Origin: Minisyncoccia bacterium
Lineage (GTDB): Bacteria; Patescibacteriota; Minisyncoccia; Phycocordibacterales; UBA918
Length of the DNA stretch: 64,000 nucleotides
NCBI GenBank assembly: GCA_046598345.1
Contig: JBKJIT010000001.1
Location: forward strand, 44,251 to 108,250
Direction: 5' to 3'
In this document: positions 4,021 to 64,000 of the stretch, piece by piece
Layout of the letters: every line of letters begins with the position of its first letter
How positions within the stretch are numbered: position 1 is the stretch's first letter
Position numbers and translations under genes: made by a program
The notes under the pieces: generated by a model
The model's database searches: none
Seen by the model: only the letters and a program-made list of their open reading frames with translations
What the model was told of the DNA's origin: nothing

Positions 4021-4443
4021 GTGGCTAAAAAGATAGTAAAGAAAATCAAGGTACAGGCGACAGGTGGGAAGGCAACACCAGCTCCACCACTTGGTCCGGT
4101 ACTAGGACAGGCCGGTATTAATATCGGTGAATTCGTAAACCAATTTAACGAACAGACTCGTGATCGAATGGGAGATGTGGTTCCAGTTGAGCTTACCGTC
4201 TATGACGATCGAAGTTTCACCTTCATCACAAAGACCAGTCCAGCTTCACGGCTCATTCTCAAAACAATTGGTAAGGACAAAGGCTCTGGAAAGAATGCGA
4301 CTGCAAAAGTTGGAAGTATTTCTAAGGCACAGATTCGAGAAATTGCGGAAACAAAGATGCAGGACTTAAATGCAAATGACATTGACGCTGCGATGAAAAT
4401 CATCGAAGGTACCTGCCGAAGTATGGGCGTAGAAGTAAAATAA
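4021..4443 (+). CDS. rplK: 50S ribosomal protein L11 (GTG start)
   Basis: Sequence is clearly L11 ([14 protein letters not shown]..., [12 protein letters not shown]). The usual downstream rplA is NOT present. Confidence 0.9.
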
Positions 4444-9912: not shown

Positions 9913-9946
9913 CAAAAAGCGCGACGCGAAGCGTCGGGCTTTTTGC
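9912..9946 (+). terminator. Rho-independent terminator after glyA
   Basis: gcgcgacgc-gaa-gcgtcgggc followed by ttttt. Confidence 0.6.
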
Positions 9947-9970
9947 TTTGATACGGTACAATGAGCAATT

Positions 9971-11065
9971 ATGGATTTTGTTTCAAGGAATAAGTGGCGC
10001 TCACTCTTTGAACTCGGGAAGAGGCATCTCCTCACGGTTTCGTTCTTTCTCGGATTCATTATAGACAGTTTTACGCTCAACAGGATTGATCAAACCTTTG
10101 ATATAGCAGTACTTCTTTTCTATATCATCCTCACCATGGTATCGATGATCCTCCTCTATGGCAGTGTGTCTGAGAAGTATTTTGAAAGACTAAACCCGTT
10201 CTTTAAAAAGTGGTCGCCCTATCTCATTCAGTACTCTTTCGGAGGATTGCTTTCCGGTATGCTCATTTTTTATGGCAGAAGCGGTGCTTTTTATGAAAGT
10301 TGGCCATTCATGCTCATGATCATTGCTGCGGTATACGGCAATGAAACCATTAAAGACAGGGCAACTCGCCTCGTGTACAACCTAGGTATGTTTTTTGTTG
10401 GCATGTTTGCGCTCGTTGTTCTTATGGTCCCTGTCTTCTTAGGTAAAATGGGGCCGCTCGTATTTATGGGGAGCGGACTCATCGCACTCACCATTATGTA
10501 TTGGTTTGTACGAGTACTTACATATATGGTCCCTAACTTTATGGCGCTCCAGCGAAAGAGCGCGGTCTTCACGATCGGTATCATTTTTGCAGTCTTCAAC
10601 TTTCTCTATTTTGCCAACATTATTCCTCCAATCCCGCTCTCTCTCAAAGAAGTTGGCATATATCACGGCGTTGTGCGTTTTGACAATGATACCTATCAAG
10701 TCACCTATGAAAAGCCAAAGTGGTGGGAATTTTCTCAGGATTCGGACAAAACATTTCACAGCGCTCCCGGCGATAATATATTTTGTTTTGCATCAGTCTT
10801 TGCCCCAACAAGACTTGCTACGAACATTTACCATCGGTGGGAGTTTTATAATGAAAAAACAAAAAATTGGATTGACCACGGACGGTATGCGTATGCAATT
10901 TCAGGAGGAAGAGGGGACGGCTTTCGGGGATATACAATGATTTCAAATTACGAGGAAGGAGCATGGCGCTGTACGGTCGAGACTGAGCGCGGACAATCTC
11001 TGGGTCGTGTCGATTTTGAGGTAGTGCCTGGAGAAAAACGTGAGCTCGTGACACAGATTAAATAG
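9971..11065 (+). CDS. Polytopic membrane protein with a C-terminal soluble domain; function unknown
   Basis: About 7 hydrophobic helices followed by a roughly 150-aa hydrophilic domain (Trp/Tyr-rich). No recognisable catalytic motif. Confidence 0.5.
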   Translation: MDFVSRNKWRSLFELGKRHLLTVSFFLGFIIDSFTLNRIDQTFDIAVLLFYIILTMVSMILLYGSVSEKYFERLNPFFKKWSPYLIQYSFGGLLSGMLIFYGRSGAFYESWPFMLMIIAAVYGNETIKDRATRLVYNLGMFFVGMFALVVLMVPVFLGKMGPLVFMGSGLIALTIMYWFVRVLTYMVPNFMALQRKSAVFTIGIIFAVFNFLYFANIIPPIPLSLKEVGIYHGVVRFDNDTYQVTYEKPKWWEFSQDSDKTFHSAPGDNIFCFASVFAPTRLATNIYHRWEFYNEKTKNWIDHGRYAYAISGGRGDGFRGYTMISNYEEGAWRCTVETERGQSLGRVDFEVVPGEKRELVTQIK

Positions 11066-43979: not shown

Positions 43980-44007
43980 TTGACTCCCTAACGCTTTCCT
44001 ATATAAT
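43980..44007 (+). promoter_or_regulatory. Near-consensus sigma70 promoter TTGACT-N16-TATAAT upstream of 23S rRNA
   Basis: ttgact ccctaacgctttccta tataat, about 500 nt before the mature 23S 5' end. Confidence 0.55.
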
Positions 44008-44718
44008 GGCGCCTACGTGTTTATGCATTTTTCACTAAGAACCACTTAGCGGCACCAGAACCGAAGGGTTCATTGTGCCGCCTCGCGCGGTTTTTTTAGT
44101 CAAAAATGCAAGGGGATACGTGTGATCATTGATAAATCCTAGAGGCAAGATCGAGCGCTTTTGGCGCCCTGGTTTCGTCTATAGGAGTTGCGTAACAATG
44201 GTCACGCAATCACATATCCTCGAGACGAGGTTGATAAGGCCTCGTCTCAGAAAAACAAATCCTGCTCGGGAATCGACGCCCGAGTAGGTGCATCTCTCAC
44301 TCAAATGAGAGGTGTCAGGTGAATGTGTAGCGTTTAGATTTTGTGTCATCGACACGGGGTCTTTTCGTCCGCTACACATTCAACACACACAACGTTTCTT
44401 TCACTTAGTATTTTTGTGGAAGAGACAAACAAGTAAGAATTGTACAGCGGTGTACAGAATCAGGTAGGTGAATGTAAAGCACTCGTAAAGCGGTGTATAG
44501 CATTCCCTACAGGATAAAGGGTGTATGGTGGATGCCTAGGTTTCAAGAAGCGATGAAGGACGTGGTATGGCTGCGTTAAGTTCCGGTTAGATGCCAAATA
44601 ATCTATGACCCGGAAATCTCCGAATGAGGAAACTCACCTGCTTACGGCAGGTACCCATGTATGTGGGAGCGTACCCAGCGAAGTGAAACATCTCAGTAGC
44701 TGGAGGAAAAGAAAGCAA

Positions 44719-44813
44719 TAACGGAACTTTCTTTCTGAACGGATGCTTAGCATCCGAACACGAAAGTGCGTAGGGTGCGAAAGTACCATTACGTTCAGGA
44801 AGAAGGTTCTTGC
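44719..44813 (+). other. About 95-nt insertion in 23S domain I
   Basis: Lies between GGAAAAGAAAGCAA and AATTCCCTGAGTAGCGGCGAGCGAA, which are adjacent in E. coli. Contains the hairpin gaacggatgcttagcatccgaac. Confidence 0.55.
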
Positions 44814-45081
44814 AATTCCCTGAGTAGCGGCGAGCGAAACGGGATGAGCCCAAACCATTCGTGTTTACATGGATGGGGTTGTAGGGCAGTAGCGTCATTT
44901 AGTTGAGAAGAGTAAAAAATTGTCGGGATAACAAAACGCGTTGGGAAGCGCGACCCTAGTAGGTAATAGTCCTGTATGTGAAATTACGACAACTCTTTTG
45001 TTACTGTTCCTGAGTAGTTCGGGACATGAATAGCCCGAATGAATCTGGGAGTACTAACTCCTAAGGCTAAATATTCTTGAA

Positions 45082-45127
<46 letters not shown>

Positions 45128-45692
45128 GGAGAGGGGAGTGAAATAGATCTGAAACCATACACTTACAAGGAGTCGCGGCCCTGCGGGGTTGCGGCGTGCC
45201 TATTGAAGAATGAGCCGGCGAGTGTACCTTTGTCCTTTGTCTAAGTGGTAATCCCACGGAGGCACAGTGAAAGCGAGCGTGAATAGCGCGAATATAGGGC
45301 AGGGGTACGACCCGAAGCGGGATGAGCTTGCCATGTGCAGGGTGAAGCGACGGTAAAACGTCGTGGAGGCCCGAACCGGTTGGCCGTTCAAAACCATCGG
45401 ATGACATGTGGTAGGGAGTGAAAAGCTAATCGAATTCCGTAATAGCTGGTTCTCTCCGAAACAGCTTTAGGGTTGGCGTCGCGTGTTCCTCCTGGGGGTA
45501 GAGCACTGGAAGGTCTAAATAGGGCGAAAGCTCGTTAGACCTATCAAACTCCGAATACCAGGTAGTTATAGCGCGGCAGTTAGACTATGGGGGAGAAGCT
45601 CCATTGGTCGAAAGGGAAACAGCCCAGATCGCCAGTTAAGGTCCCTAAATATATGCTCAGTGCAACTTGAGGAGGTGAGGATTCACGAACAA

Positions 45693-45723
<31 letters not shown>

Positions 45724-46576
45724 TAAAGAAAGCGTAACAGCTCACTGGTCGAGAGTCCTTGCGCCGAAGATGATCGGGGCTCAAGCATATTACCGAAACT
45801 GCGGATTTCATATTTTCTTCGGAAAGTATGGAGTGGTAGGAGAGCGTTCTGTTCTGCGATGAAGCCAAGGGGGGACCCGCGGTGGAGCGTACAGAAGTGA
45901 GAATGCCGGCACAAGTAACCGCAACACGGGTGAGAACCCCGTGCGCCGAAATACCAAGGTTTCCTTCGCTATGTTGTTCAGCGAAGGGTTAGTCGGTCCT
46001 AAGCCGATCCCGATCGGGGGAGGCGATGGATAGCAGGTTAATATTCCTGCACACTGTTTTGTTGCGATGGAGGGACGGAGTGTTGTACTCAAAGCATCTT
46101 ATTGGATTGGTGCTGGAGTTATGAGGACGTGAAGTAGGCAAATCCGCTTCGCTCACTTTAATGTGAAGTCCAAGTAAGGTCTGAAAGGGATCCTTCGGGT
46201 GAACTGATTTGGGGAGCACGCTTCCGAGAAAAACTTCTAAGGTTAAACAAAATGGTTCCGTACCGCAATCCGACACAGGTGGTAAGGTCGAGTAGACCAA
46301 GGCGAACGAGTGAGATGCTCTTAAGGAACTCGGCAAAAAAGCGGCCGTAACTTCGGGATAAGGCCTGCCCCTAGCAATAGGGGCCGCAGCGAAAGATTTC
46401 CTGGCGACTGTTTAACAAAAACACAGCTCCCTGCGAACACGTAAGTGGATGTATAGGGGGTGACGCCTGACCAATGCCGGAAGGTCAAACATGGAGGGTG
46501 AAGTGTATTTATATGCTTTGCTGGGCTATGTAAGCCCCGGTCAATGTCAGCGATAACTATAATCGTTCTAAGGTAG

Positions 46577-46770
46577 AGCAATTTTCTTCGGAAAATTGCT
46601 CTAGGACTGGAACGATTATAGGTTAAACATACAAGTGCCAAATGCTACCTTGTATGCAGAAATGCATGCATAGTCCAAATGCAACCAATAAGAGACCAAA
46701 TGTTGCACATCCTCGTCACGTAACAGTGAACGGATGAAGATAGAGTCCTTCTGCAATAAATAGGAAGAAG
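46577..46770 (+). other. About 190-nt insertion in 23S domain IV at the L1931-equivalent site (between CUAAGGU(AG) and AGCGCAAUUCCUUGUCGGGUAAGUUCCGAC)
   Basis: The flanks match the conserved H69-H71 region. The insert starts with an 11-bp stem and UUCG loop (gagcaattttc-ttcg-gaaaattgctc) and ends ...gaagaag. Confidence 0.6.
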
Positions 46771-47409
46771 AGCGCAATTCCTTGTCGGGTAAGTTCCGAC
46801 GTGCACGAATGGCGTAACGACTGGGAAACTGTCTCAAGAGCATGCTCGGTGAAAATACAATGGGGGTGAAGATGCCCCCTACCTGCAGTTAGACGAAAAG
46901 ACCCTAGGAGCTTTACTGTAGCTTCGTATTGGGGCTGTTTGATTAATGCGTAGCATAGGTGGGAGACTTTGAAGCGGGCTTTCGGGTTCCGTGGAGTCGA
47001 AATATGAAATACCACTCTTTAATTGGGCAGTTCCTAACCTCGTAGGCAAAACCTACGAGAGACAGTGCGTGGCAGGCAGTTTTAGTGGGGCGCTACCCTC
47101 CCAAAAAGTAACGGAGGGGTCTCAAGGTTGGTTAGGCGCGAATGGAAACCGTGCCGATAGTGTAATGGCATAAACCAGCTTGACTGTAAGACGTAGGTGT
47201 CAAACAGATGCGAAAGCAGAGCATAGTGAACCGATGGCCCGCGTTAGATGCGGCCGGAGATTACCCGATAAAAGTTACCCTAGGGATAACAGGCTAGTCG
47301 TGCCCAAGCGTCCATAGCGACGGCACGGTTCGGCACCTCGATGTCGGTTCAACTTATCCTGGGGCTGGAGCAGGTCCCAAGGGTTTGGCTGTTCGCCAAT
47401 TAAAAAGTT

Positions 47410-47447
<38 letters not shown>

Positions 47448-48015
47448 CTCTATCTACTGCAGGCGTCGATTCTTGATGAGATTTGTCCCTAGTACGAGAG
47501 GACCGGGATGAACGAACCTCTGGTCTATCGGCTGTCACGCCAGTGGCACTGCCGAGTAGCTATGTTCGGAATGAATAACCGCTGAAAGCATCTAAGCGGG
47601 AAGTCAACTCAAAGATGATGAATCATTAAGTCCCCTGAGAGATGATCAGGTTGATAGGCACTAGGTGTACGTGCAGTAATGCATGCAGCCGAGGTGTACT
47701 AATTGGACGTATTCCTGTAGGGAATGCTGTACATGGCCCACGATGTTGAAATTTGCACATTTCTGCGTTATGCGTCGGGAAACGTTGTTCACTGGACTAA
47801 AATGTCCCGTTCACAACATTTCCCTCGCATGCCTTGAACTGTATTAAATTTTAACATCGTGAAAATAAGCTGTGTACATTTCTACGGATTCTGTACACAA
47901 AAACAATTTTTACAAAGTGTTGTGTGAGTCGATCAAGTCCACGAGGATATGTGATTCTGAAAGCAATGTTTCGGAACTAAATATTGAATATGGTAACAAG
48001 GTTTACCTACCTAAT

Positions 48016-48188
48016 CGGGATGTAGCTTAGTTGGAGAGGTTTTGCGTGTAGCATACAACCACTGCACCATCTGCAGCCGCGATATGGTGAACTGCCGACG
48101 ACAAGTTGGAGGAAGGAGTGGAAACGTACAAAGCCGAGAGTACTAGGACAGTTTCCTAGGAGCGTTGGTTCGAATCCGACCATCCCGA
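48016..48188 (+). tRNA. tRNA-like gene with about 97 nt of additional internal sequence (intron- or insertion-containing tRNA, or tRNA-like processing element)
   Basis: 7-bp acceptor stem CGGGATG / CATCCCG, discriminator A, canonical T-arm GTTGG-TTCGAAT-CCGAC, D-arm-like TAGCTTAGTTGGAGAGG. A candidate anticodon hairpin CTAGG-ACAGTTT-CCTAG lies just before the T-arm. Overall length is 173 nt. Confidence 0.5.
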
Positions 48189-48264
48189 CCGCCATTCTTA
48201 AGTCTTACTTAAGAATGGCAACCTTTTTACCGTATTCAATATTGAAAAATAAAATCAGCGTTTA

Positions 48265-48377
<113 letters not shown>

Positions 48378-48393
48378 AGTGCTGATTTAACTA

Positions 48394-48422
48394 AAAAGCA
48401 CCAGCATCAGCTGGTGCTTTTT
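48394..48422 (+). terminator. Rho-independent terminator after 5S
   Basis: aaaaagcaccagc-atca-gctggtgcttttt. Confidence 0.7.
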
Positions 48423-48445
48423 AGAAATCAGTCACTCAATTTTAG

Positions 48446-48555
48446 TTGGCGGTTCCCTTCGTCCAGTGGTTTTCTCCAAGGAAGAGAAAACCAGGAGATA
48501 AATTCAACATAGTCGTTACACTCCTTGTTTCATTCAACTTTAAGTGCTGATTTTT
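48446..48555 (+). pseudogene. Degenerate 5S-like remnant (second copy of the 5S flanking/terminal sequences with a divergent interior)
   Basis: It starts tttagttggcgg (compare aagttggtgg) and ends caactttaagtgctgatt, identical to the 20 nt that follow the true 5S gene. Confidence 0.3.
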
Positions 48556-48596
48556 TATGCTCACACCGTAGCTTTTTCATATGATACTATACGTGA

Positions 48597-49127
48597 ATGA
48601 AGGATCAATTTACTCTTTTGACTACAGGCTTTCTCTCGGGTGTTGCTGTTTTGCTGTCTCTGGTCTTCACCCTTAACAATCCACTTTCTTTAATTCCAGG
48701 AATTATATATGGTGTAATTACCGGGGCTTATTTCAATCATGCATTTTTAAATCCAAAACCAATTACTAAATTAATTTTATGGACTCTTGTCTCGACATTC
48801 AGTTTTTTTGTAGCAACAAGCATAGCCGCTTCTTATGTTGCTGACAGTATAGGTCTCGATAAGAACACCATGGATAACACAACGTTTGGGCTGGTATTCG
48901 CCCTATCAGGACTTACTGGTGCATTTGTACTGGCGATTGGATTTCATTTTATATTTCACAGGTTACAACTTCTGCGATTTATATTAGTGCCTGTAACAGG
49001 AAGCATTACGGCTTTTGCTGTCATGGCATTTGAGGGGAATTTATCTACCATTCCTCTTTTATGGGTAGTTTGGCAAACAATTGTTACTTTTATTCTGGCA
49101 TATCCATTTTCTACTAAATTAAAATAA
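48597..49127 (+). CDS. Hypothetical polytopic membrane protein (5-6 TM)
   Basis: Hydrophobicity pattern only; the gene is AT-rich. Confidence 0.4.
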   Translation: MKDQFTLLTTGFLSGVAVLLSLVFTLNNPLSLIPGIIYGVITGAYFNHAFLNPKPITKLILWTLVSTFSFFVATSIAASYVADSIGLDKNTMDNTTFGLVFALSGLTGAFVLAIGFHFIFHRLQLLRFILVPVTGSITAFAVMAFEGNLSTIPLLWVVWQTIVTFILAYPFSTKLK

Positions 49128-61885: not shown

Positions 61886-62267
61886 AGCCCCACTGTCCTG
61901 ATCTGGGACATTTTTATTGCCCCGGATTTTGGAGGATAGATGTCATTTGATAACGTTGTATGAAGGTCATACAATTGCATATCGTTCGATCAGTCGTACC
62001 TTTACGATTGGTTGAACAAAACGTATATGTTGCATAAGCAATGTCATTTTGACATTCATATGAAACGGTACGCATCACAAGAATTTGTCGAAAGACAAGT
62101 TCGAAATAAGGCAGAAGTTGATTACAAATATTTTGTATTTTCTTTTGTCTTATCCTTAGGAAATCGTTAAATAGTGATTTGAGAAAAAGTACACTCATCA
62201 CAATACATTTAACAAACAAGATGCACTCAGCCCTTAAAAGCTGAAGCAACTTGTCTTAACTTAGAGT

Positions 62268-63706
<1,439 letters not shown>

Positions 63707-64000
63707 TAATTCCAATTGGATACGTCGTTGCAATCTGGTAACAGAGAGCGAATAACGGCTAATTGGTCGACATTATGTGCCTCAATTGAGCACATAATAT
63801 GGGATGATACTCAACCTCAAAGATAGTATCTGTACTCTACGGAAAGACGTAGCCAAAGGATAAGACAAAAGAGAACACAAACGTTCTGTCGGTGATGATA
63901 TACAGTACAGAAAACAAAAGACCCGATCGCGAAGCGATCGGGTCTTTTGCGTACCTCTTTACCTTGGCCTCATCTGCATGTAGTCAGGCACAATGGGATT

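Follow-up and report, generated by a model that had tools for sequence, protein, structure and literature searches.

A tRNA-like RNA gene in the 23S-5S rRNA spacer of a Minisyncoccia bacterium with an insert resembling helices 38-40 of 16S rRNA

Introduction

In Haloferax volcanii, a tRNA-like element located upstream of the 5S rRNA is cut by tRNase Z, according to the account of it given in PMC3296008 (Holzle 2008). An element of comparable shape and place was found in a Minisyncoccia bacterium (assembly GCA_046598345.1, contig JBKJIT010000001.1), within a stretch of 64,000 nucleotides (positions 44,251 to 108,250 of the contig, hereafter the window). At positions 48016-48188 of the window, in the 23S-5S spacer and inside the 23S/5S transcription unit, a tRNA-like RNA gene was found to be present, with a scaffold derived from tRNA-Pro and an insert of 103 nucleotides that resembles helices 38, 39 and 40 (h38, h39 and h40) of 16S rRNA. 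Both elements are tRNA-shaped parts of an rRNA transcript, placed between its 23S and 5S portions, and are presumably substrates of tRNA end-processing enzymes. In contrast to that of H. volcanii, the element of the window is bacterial, ends 78 nt from the 5S rRNA and does not define its end, is enclosed in its own long helix and carries a 100-nt rRNA-like domain.

Spacer and distal tRNA genes are known from rRNA operons, and ordinary tRNAs occupy the 23S-5S slot in relatives. Mimicry of rRNA has so far been known from mRNA leaders that regulate ribosomal-protein genes (Meyer 2018; Eckert and Weinberg 2020, PMC7247131), in which a short RNA reproduces the conserved nucleotides and the local fold of a protein-binding site of rRNA, as the insert described here also does. 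Unlike these leaders, the element lies in an rRNA operon and adjoins no ribosomal-protein gene that it could regulate, and its insert copies the whole three-way junction h38-h40, for which no leader mimic was found described. Transfer-messenger RNA (tmRNA) and YrlA, a bacterial Y-like RNA, likewise combine a tRNA-like acceptor and T-arm with a foreign domain at the anticodon arm or D region, whereas the element of the window contains neither the tag reading frame nor the pseudoknot ring of tmRNA, and differs from YrlA in topology, its 5′ and 3′ ends forming the acceptor stem. In Patescibacteria, the phylum concerned here, tRNA genes with extra internal sequence that are missed by standard tools were found to contain self-splicing group I ribozymes in the anticodon loop (e.g. 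at 35/36) of decoding tRNAs (Nakagawa et al. 2026, PMC13011429). The present insert, in contrast, has 103 nt without a group I core and is located in the D-loop of a non-decoding scaffold.

No description of such elements was found in the searchable literature on tRNA-like elements in Patescibacteria or on 23S-5S spacers, and the survey of tRNA introns in Patescibacteria does not mention them (PMC13011429). The ingredients, namely spacer tRNAs, tRNA-like processing signals, rRNA mimicry in ribosomal-protein leaders and tRNA-like scaffolds with foreign domains, are known; their combination appears to be undescribed.

Results

Structure of the tRNA-like element

The element was found to have the layout CGGGAUG UA GCUU AGUUGG [103 nt] GAGU A CUAGG ACAGUUU CCUAG GAGC GUUGG UUCGAAU CCGAC CAUCCCG A. 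A preliminary description of this DNA had already proposed the fully paired acceptor stem, the discriminator A, the T-arm, the length of 173 nt with about 100 of them in excess and the candidate anticodon hairpin, and all of these were recovered (Table 1). The D side that it gave, TA GCTT AGTTGG at 48023-48034, was also present, whereas the 3′ strand of the D-stem is most likely the distal GAGT (48138-48141) and not the proximal GAGG that had been quoted.

The Rfam tRNA model RF00005 was found to match exactly 48016-48188 with 34.7 bits against a gathering score of 29. All model positions 1-71 were covered, and the 103-nt insertion was placed after G18-G19 in the D-loop, which agrees with the earlier statement that the extra sequence is neither at position 37/38 nor a group I intron; no group I core was found. 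Among the features of a canonical decoding tRNA, the 7-bp acceptor stem, the discriminator, the TΨC-type T-loop and the G18-G19 of the D-loop were found to be present, whereas U33 and a purine at position 37 were missing from the loop ACAGUUU, which contained C33 and U37, and the length of 173 nt departed from the usual ~70-95 nt. The nucleotide U8 was also present, and the discriminator was followed by CCG, most homologues containing an encoded CCA. Because this loop is non-canonical at positions 33 and 37 and the loops of relatives contain 3 or 6 nt or have been replaced altogether, it is concluded that the RNA does not decode.

In its default mode, run on the window and on relatives, ARAGORN found neither a tRNA at the element nor, in the window, a tmRNA, and its intron mode returned only a 'tRNA-Tyr' (gta) with an 80-nt intron, which was rejected as not credible; calls of this mode were rejected throughout, as homologous elements were given inconsistent identities (Tyr, Gln, Arg, Stop and so on). 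No other Rfam 15 family was found at the locus, the tRNA model being the sole match at E<=1, and the other matches in a scan of 47700-48500 were weak or lay over the 5S terminator. No Rfam tmRNA match was found at E<=10 in the region of the element. No Intron_gpI match was found in the window; the same model detected a group I intron in the 23S rRNA gene of a relative that also carries the insert (locus L097, 8946-9146; Rfam, 54.3 bits).

The scaffold in the spacers of relatives

In a search of 5.8 billion proteins, a 176-aa open reading frame (ORF) directly 3′ of the rRNA operon (48597-49127) matched only itself, and it contained no Pfam domain. It was therefore useless for synteny, and the VWA-domain neighbour was used instead. 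Hundreds of homologues of the latter, with ~55-60% identity, were found in metagenome-assembled genomes (MAGs) of Patescibacteria, or candidate phyla radiation (CPR) bacteria (Kaiserbacteria, Paceibacterota, Minisyncoccia). A scan of the genome collection by VWA alignment gave 80 loci. The scan loci, the window and four loci fetched earlier yielded 59 spacer sequences with a 23S end and a 5S gene, 57 of them distinct (L002 is identical to L009, and L007 to L014), with spacer lengths of 90-1200 nt. ARAGORN found 26 ordinary-looking tRNAs in 21 of the 59 spacers; a tRNA in this place is thus normal for the clade, and the position between 23S and 5S, which had been regarded as unusual, is not.

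A canonical tRNA-Pro (UGG or CGG) was found in four spacers (L033, L043, L060 and L066), with the acceptor CGGGGYG/CRCCCCG-A, the D-arm GCGC-AGCCUGGUA-GCGC and the T-arm GGUGG-UUCGAAU-CCAYC. The scaffold of the window was found to agree with it in C1-G72 and A73, in the D-arm (GCGC/GCUC with AGYYUGGUA) and in the slot that it occupies. C1-G72 and A73 are identity elements of tRNA-Pro. The same scaffold was present in non-decoding relatives, with an anticodon loop of 3 nt in L018, of 6 nt in L047 and of the sequence GCAUGUG in L016. In 19 homologous elements the acceptor and T stems were fully paired and contained many compensatory changes, and most carried an encoded CCA. Together with the match to the tRNA model, this recurrence goes beyond chance. 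On these sequence grounds the element is read as a tRNA-Pro-derived gene in which the acceptor, T-arm and elbow have been maintained and decoding has been lost.

Expansions were also seen in the D-loops of relatives. A hairpin insertion of ~22 nt, GGGUUAUUGCAACUU, was common to the D-loops of L023 (483-512) and L044 (4717-4746), and the D-loop of L099 contained a different insertion of 28 nt; from these sequences the D-loop is seen as a second hot spot for expansion.

The insert as a conserved three-way junction

The insert was found to contain a module that recurs in relatives. In an alignment of seven cores, the module consisted of a closing stem of 4-5 bp, a variable middle hairpin and an 8-bp hairpin with mostly a GAYAA loop, joined by the invariant single-stranded linkers ACUGCC and GGAGGAAGG. 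The internal hairpin caccat...atggtg, noted earlier, and the hairpin ccgac...gttgg were found to belong to this junction. In the seven cores, 95% of the cells were paired and five pairs changed on both sides; the observed covariation score was reached by 0 of 500 shuffles, and all slid controls collapsed. The same three-way junction was returned independently by RNAalifold. The covariation support is good for so few sequences.

The genomes that contain the module have VWA neighbours of only 52-60% identity, and their spacers are otherwise unalignable. Among the four cores derived by synteny, the row of the window was misaligned by MAFFT, and a model-guided alignment was used. The insert was found in a single copy in the window at up to 3 mismatches, and was thus neither a repeat nor a mobile element there.

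Similarity of the module to 16S rRNA

By eye, the linkers of the module were found to match universally conserved 16S rRNA sequence (AACCC..., GAGACUGCC-hairpin-GGAGGAAGGNGGGGA). As pairwise alignment with the 16S rRNA of the same genome was not significant, the reverse test was made with models built from the inserts. A covariance model from the seven inserts only (R1) was searched against 870 kb comprising all loci, the window and Escherichia coli rrsH, and gave a full-length match to E. coli rrsH 16S 1108-1192 with 37.8 bits (E=6e-8). Further matches were to L093 (23.1 bits) and, with 26.7 bits, to the h40 of a 16S gene in L092/L094 that is unrelated to the element. Because three of the training sequences of R1 had been collected with a pattern containing GGAGGAAGG, a second model (R2) was rebuilt from the four synteny-derived copies only; it matched E. 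coli 16S 1108-1192 with 35.6 bits (E=3e-6) and also recovered L097, L099 and L100.

The Rfam small-subunit rRNA consensus was found to have the same topology and letters, with h38 CCcc/ggGG, h39, h40 CcgCCggc-GauAA-gccGGagG and the linker AAGGu. By blastn, the elements aligned with E. coli 16S 1154-1188, positions 76-107 of the window element aligning with 1157-1188. The module thus has in common with 16S h38-h39-h40 (E. coli 1108-1192) the closing stem, the middle hairpin, the 8-bp h40 with a GAYAA loop and the linkers ACUGCC/GGAGGAAGG, whereas its h39 has been cut to a hairpin of 4-11 bp or swapped for one that resembles the 530 loop, and the whole is grafted on a tRNA instead of being embedded in the 30S head. 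To bring out this relation, structure-aware models and comparison with canonical 16S rRNA were needed. From the sequences and the models, the insert is judged to be homologous in sequence and structure to h38, h39 and h40 of 16S rRNA and their linkers.

The loop of the middle hairpin of L023, GCCUGCAGCCGCGGUAAU, was found to be identical at 17 of 18 positions to E. coli 16S 517-534 (blastn). In 0.95 Mb searched on both strands, the exact 14-mer GCAGCCGCGGTAAT was confined to E. coli 16S, the module of L023 and a hairpin in the 23S of L061. The last is a long hairpin at ~2400-2460 in a 23S expansion, capped by the exact 16S 530-loop sequence AUCAGCAGCCGCGGUAAUC, and is a second context in which an h18-like loop of 16S is displayed from an RNA of the rRNA operon.

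The 16S rRNA encoded in the window itself was found to be less canonical in h40 (63330-63360), CAGCUCCC-UCAC-GGGAGAGG. Its 530 loop (62719-62740) also deviates, GCAGGAGCGG (GCCAGCAGGAGCGGUAAU), hence a mismatch to the 515F primer. At both places the canonical form has been kept by the module. The preliminary description contained neither the tRNA-Pro origin of the scaffold nor the reading of the insert as a miniature of 16S h38-h40 with a 530-loop-like hairpin.

Occurrence of the module

Eight loci were found to contain the module in a tRNA scaffold, namely the window, L002, L020, L023, L097, L099, L100 and L093, L002 and L009 being one locus sequenced twice. The module was located in the D-loop in the window and L020, and replaced the anticodon loop, with the D-arm intact, in L002, L023, L097, L099, L100 and L093. 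L002 is the closest relative with a spacer (60% VWA identity) and contains an element of 168 nt, in which ~110 nt replace the anticodon loop. The sequence ACUGCCGAYGAMAGUYGGAGGAAGG was common to the inserts of the window and L002, and the motif was also present in L020 and L023. In L020 the module lies inside the D-loop, GCUC-AG[...]UUGGUA-GAGC, followed by the intact arm CCAGG-AGUGAGU-CCUGG, and the closing stem CCACU/AGUGG is the same as in the window; this position supports the D-loop placement that Rfam gave for the window. The Rfam placement on L020 itself, with a spurious acceptor inside the module, was rejected in favour of a manual reading of the sequence.

When metagenome contigs were scanned with an exact pattern containing GGAGGAAGG, 13 loci were obtained, of which seven were one coding gene (chance), two an odd 16S gene and four true (L097, L099, L100 and L093). 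The modules of L097 and L099 lie between 23S and 5S and that of L100 just past the 5S. In L093, a tRNA-like gene at 9934-10088 on the minus strand has the non-Pro acceptor AGGGAAG/CUUCCCU and lies outside any rRNA operon. Its module is h40-like and has no middle hairpin, and contains in addition GUCGUCAGC as in 16S ~1063; a type IV pilin-like gene follows downstream of it. No further module was found in the extra contigs L102-L105, three of which break at the rRNA, while the spacer of L105 contains no tRNA-like element. The same domain has thus been grafted on different loops and on at least two tRNA scaffolds, as the D-loop and anticodon-loop copies and L093 show, and judged from these sequences the module looks transplantable.

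Discussion

Proposed processing and function

A helix of ~23 bp was found to surround the tRNA-like RNA and the hairpin 3′ of it, the whole region having a fold z of -6.3 against shuffles, and the same design was present in L002 (z = -5.9). Such helices around rRNAs are cut by RNase III, and CPR bacteria have kept this enzyme (PMC12641178). The unit may be cut out of the pre-rRNA by RNase III acting on the flanking helix, and RNase P and a 3′ end-processing activity may act on the tRNA-like acceptor and elbow. The product would be a stable RNA of ~173 nt, its synthesis tied to that of 23S and 5S rRNA. Its tRNA body would then be both a handle for processing and a scaffold that stabilises the RNA, while the arm projecting from it would display a replica of a surface that is exposed to solvent on the 30S head, and could bind, as decoy, chaperone or sensor, a ligand that normally recognises this surface.

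The literature suggests uS2, uS9/uS10, the C-terminal domain of long HPF or RNA polymerase as candidate ligands. In the 30S subunit, the C-terminal domain of long HPF docks on h40 and uS2 in 100S ribosomes, as do RNA polymerase and, on collided ribosomes, SmrB, and h39 is placed with uS9 and uS10 (PMC6177447, PMC5620080, PMC11806357). As the module is closer to canonical 16S rRNA than to that of its own genome, a target with a canonical-type surface is conceivable, for example a factor of the host ribosome in episymbionts.

The element is probably, with a probability of roughly 60%, a non-decoding RNA on a tRNA scaffold that is released from the pre-rRNA and displays a mimic of the 16S head domain, for which we infer a mature form, a ligand and a function. 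A wider claim is offered as a tentative possibility: the element may represent a new class of small RNA of the rRNA operon, a tRNA-scaffolded replica of the 30S head (h38-h40, sometimes with a 530-loop hairpin), made with 23S and 5S rRNA while the 16S gene is unlinked, and acting in trans by titrating or chaperoning a ligand of the 30S head such as uS2, uS9/uS10, a hibernation factor or RNA polymerase. Such a replica, if real, could couple the production of large and small subunits or control ribosome hibernation.

Observations against a displayed 16S mimic

Several observations weigh against a functional mimic of the 16S head. The module is patchy, being present in only 4 of 57 non-redundant related spacers, and the close relatives L004 and L105 contain no tRNA-like element in the spacer at all; whatever the element does is therefore dispensable. 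Unrelated long inserts were found in the same loops of L029, L075 and L044, which indicates that the D- and anticodon loops tolerate neutral expansion, and the inserts of these three loci and of L074, L069, L086, L064, L038, L011 and L049 showed no similarity to rRNA. Smith-Waterman alignment of each element with its own 16S rRNA was not significant (z ~0), and the module is nearer to 16S rRNA of the E. coli type than to the h40 of its own genome, an odd finding if it imitates the ribosome of the same cell. A 530-like loop was present in only two of the eight loci (the window and L023), and that of the window is shortened to CUGCAGCCGCGAU. The element of the window may also adopt an alternative fold, in which the proximal GAGG is the D-stem strand, the anticodon arm carries the module and CTAGG..CCTAG forms an additional arm.

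Alternative explanations

The main rival explanation, considered somewhat unlikely, is that a decaying spacer tRNA-Pro has been kept as a punctuation mark for RNase P and RNase Z, with selection left on the acceptor, T-arm and elbow only and with D- and anticodon loops that expand neutrally, one of them having been seeded by a functionless fragment of 16S rRNA. The hypervariable anticodon arm and the conserved acceptor and T arms across relatives agree with it, as do the unrelated inserts and the patchy distribution just mentioned and, as far as the account in PMC3296008 goes, the H. volcanii element as a precedent upstream of 5S. The preliminary description had considered a tRNA-like rRNA-processing element, which comes close for the scaffold and does not cover the insert, a miniature of 16S h38-h40. 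Neutral expansion does not account for linkers that are invariant and stems that covary while the VWA neighbours are only 52-60% identical and the spacers unalignable, nor for a module that keeps exactly the nucleotides conserved in 16S rRNA and also occurs in a different tRNA scaffold outside an rRNA operon (L093). The 3′ end of the element at 48188 lies 78 nt before the start of the 5S rRNA at 48267, with a hairpin and one strand of the helix between them, and a cut there would therefore not make the 5′ end of 5S rRNA.

It is improbable that the RNA is built into the ribosome as an additional structural component, perhaps making up for the truncated 5S and the reduced rRNAs of these bacteria. 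A mitochondrial tRNA replaces 5S rRNA in the central protuberance. Co-transcription with 23S and 5S would be expected here, the element is framed by a processing helix in the manner of an rRNA, and the 5S rRNA is truncated to 108 nt (PMC9297842). The element is absent, however, from L004 and L105, two close relatives whose 5S is equally short, and the 16S rRNA of the window keeps its own h38-h40.

It is highly improbable that the gene encodes a functional tRNA with a new kind of small intron, spliced to a decoding tRNA of ~70 nt, as had been suggested earlier. In its favour, the scaffold makes a good tRNA, the insert stands between two copies of the 5-nt repeat GAGAG (48034-48038 and 48136-48140), so that a normal D-arm would result from precise excision, and group I introns abound in the tRNA genes of Patescibacteria (PMC13011429). 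Excision would leave the loop ACAGUUU with C33 and U37 in the window and AGUGAGU in L020, and six homologues have the module in place of the anticodon loop, with no consistent anticodon that could be rebuilt. The insert contains no group I or II core, at 103 nt is too short, and differs from a selfish spacer in being itself a conserved domain of rRNA type. Bacteria are not known to have a bulge-helix-bulge splicing system or its endonuclease.

A chance resemblance, or an assembly chimera of a tRNA gene and 16S reads, could be imagined from the universal 16S segments that can seed chimeric assemblies and from the non-significant alignment with the own 16S, but is vanishingly improbable given that the same architecture recurs in independent assemblies of different projects (NCBI MAGs, JGI contigs), that the copies differ by lineage-specific compensatory changes and that the module, differing from its own 16S, cannot be a mis-joined read.

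Significance

If the arm of the tRNA-scaffolded 16S mimic binds a ligand of the 30S head, rRNA mimicry would extend from mRNA leaders to a free RNA encoded in the rRNA operon, and the element would be a natural counterpart of the engineered 'tRNA scaffold' used for displaying RNA domains. It also gives a handle on ribosome biogenesis or hibernation in CPR bacteria, in which the rRNAs are reduced, assembly factors are few and the rRNA genes are not linked. A spacer tRNA has here been turned to a new use, the stages of which are preserved in relatives as canonical tRNA-Pro, degenerate loop, expanded loop and rRNA-like domain. In practice, tRNA finders overlook such genes or assign them wrongly, and the 515F/530-loop and 1175-1190-type motifs of the module could seed spurious matches of 16S primers and probes.

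Genomic setting and further observations

The coordinates of the features are given in Table 1.

Table 1. Features of the rRNA locus and of the tRNA-like element (positions in the window; MFE, minimum free energy)
Feature	Position	Strand	Basis or remark
Promoter-like site TTGACT-16-TATAAT, 11/12	43980-44007	+	Consensus scan only; upstream of 23S
23S rRNA gene, 3220 nt	44505-47724	+	RF02541, 2408 bits, 2925-position model
Enclosing helix of ~23 bp, 5′ strand	47980-48003	+	MFE fold; pairs with 48221-48244
tRNA-like RNA gene (tRNA-Pro-derived scaffold and insert), 173 nt	48016-48188	+	Sequence, Rfam, homologues
Acceptor stem 5′ strand CGGGATG	48016-48022	+	Pairs 7/7 with 48181-48187
D-stem 5′ strand GCTT (48025-48028) and D-loop AGTTGG including G18G19	48025-48034	+	Rfam alignment
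D-loop insert, 103 nt	48035-48137	+	Rfam alignment; homologous module inside L020 D-loop
Basal stem (stalk), 11 bp, 5′ strand GGTTTTGCGTG, 3′ strand CGTACAAAGCC (48125-48135)	48038-48048	+	MFE fold and sequence
Module core, three-way junction like 16S h38-h39-h40	48055-48126	+	Models R1 71.4 and R2 71.2 bits; RNAalifold
h38-like closing stem, CCACT pairing with AGTGG (48117-48121)	48059-48063	+	3/5 pairs doubly compensated across homologues
Hairpin at h39 position, CACCAT/ATGGTG, loop CTGCAGCCGCGAT (48071-48083) like 16S 530 loop	48065-48089	+	Sequence
h40-like hairpin CTGCCGAC GACAA GTTGGAGG	48092-48112	+	Alignment, model
AAGG linker, invariant in all copies	48113-48116	+	Counterpart of conserved 16S GAAGG linker
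D-stem 3′ strand GAGT (48138-48141) and A26	48138-48142	+	Rfam alignment
Anticodon-like arm CTAGG ACAGTTT CCTAG	48143-48159	+	Loop C33, U37
T-arm GTTGG (48164-48168) TTCGAAT (48169-48175) CCGAC (48176-48180)	48164-48180	+	
Acceptor stem 3′ strand CATCCCG and discriminator A (48188)	48181-48188	+	Followed by CCG
13-bp hairpin directly 3′ of the element	48191-48219	+	Hairpin at this place usual in relatives
Enclosing helix, 3′ strand	48221-48244	+	MFE fold
5S rRNA gene, 108 nt, with own extended terminal stem	48267-48374	+	Rfam search and sequence
Hairpin followed by T-run (5S terminator)	~48398-48424	+	Sequence reading; not listed by terminator scan
176-aa ORF directly 3′ of the rRNA operon	48597-49127		
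16S rRNA gene	62256-63716	+	Unlinked; 14 kb downstream of 23S-5S, same strand
Own 16S h38-h40 region	63308-63376	+	Weak match of the module models at homologous place; R1 18 bits, E=0.13

The rRNA genes of the window were found in the order 23S-5S, followed after 14 kb by 16S, on one strand, with the rplJ-rplL genes preceding the 23S. The transcript of 23S, tRNA-like RNA and 5S probably starts at the promoter-like site, as judged from its sequence. The rRNA operon is followed by the 176-aa orphan ORF, the VWA protein and RodA, and the order L10-L12 ... 23S-5S-(x)-VWA-RodA was found to be kept in relatives. The 23S rRNA contained expansions of ~300 nt relative to the 2925-position model, with no group I intron match within, and an ORF of the LAGLIDADG type was found near the 3′ end of the 23S in L002. 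The 5S rRNA is shortened in helix IV/loop D, and a short 5S is a known trait of Parcubacteria (PMC9297842).

A second unit was found at 48425-48560, past the 5S terminator, with termini like the precursor stem of 5S (AAUCAG..UUAGUUGGCGG ... CAACUUUAAGUGCUGAUUUUUU) and an unrelated interior; judged from its sequence, a pseudo-5S or a small RNA of another kind is possible. A 5S-like copy was also present beside the true 5S in L002 (1608-1730), L011 (~560-660) and L015 (~4170-4260), and on both sides of the 5S in L105. These copies were found to contain a partial 5′ end of 5S, followed by a conserved insert of ~100 nt (GUGAGACAGUCYGGGRGACUGUCGCAAGAC...CCUGUAAGG) and then ACCCGUUCCC.

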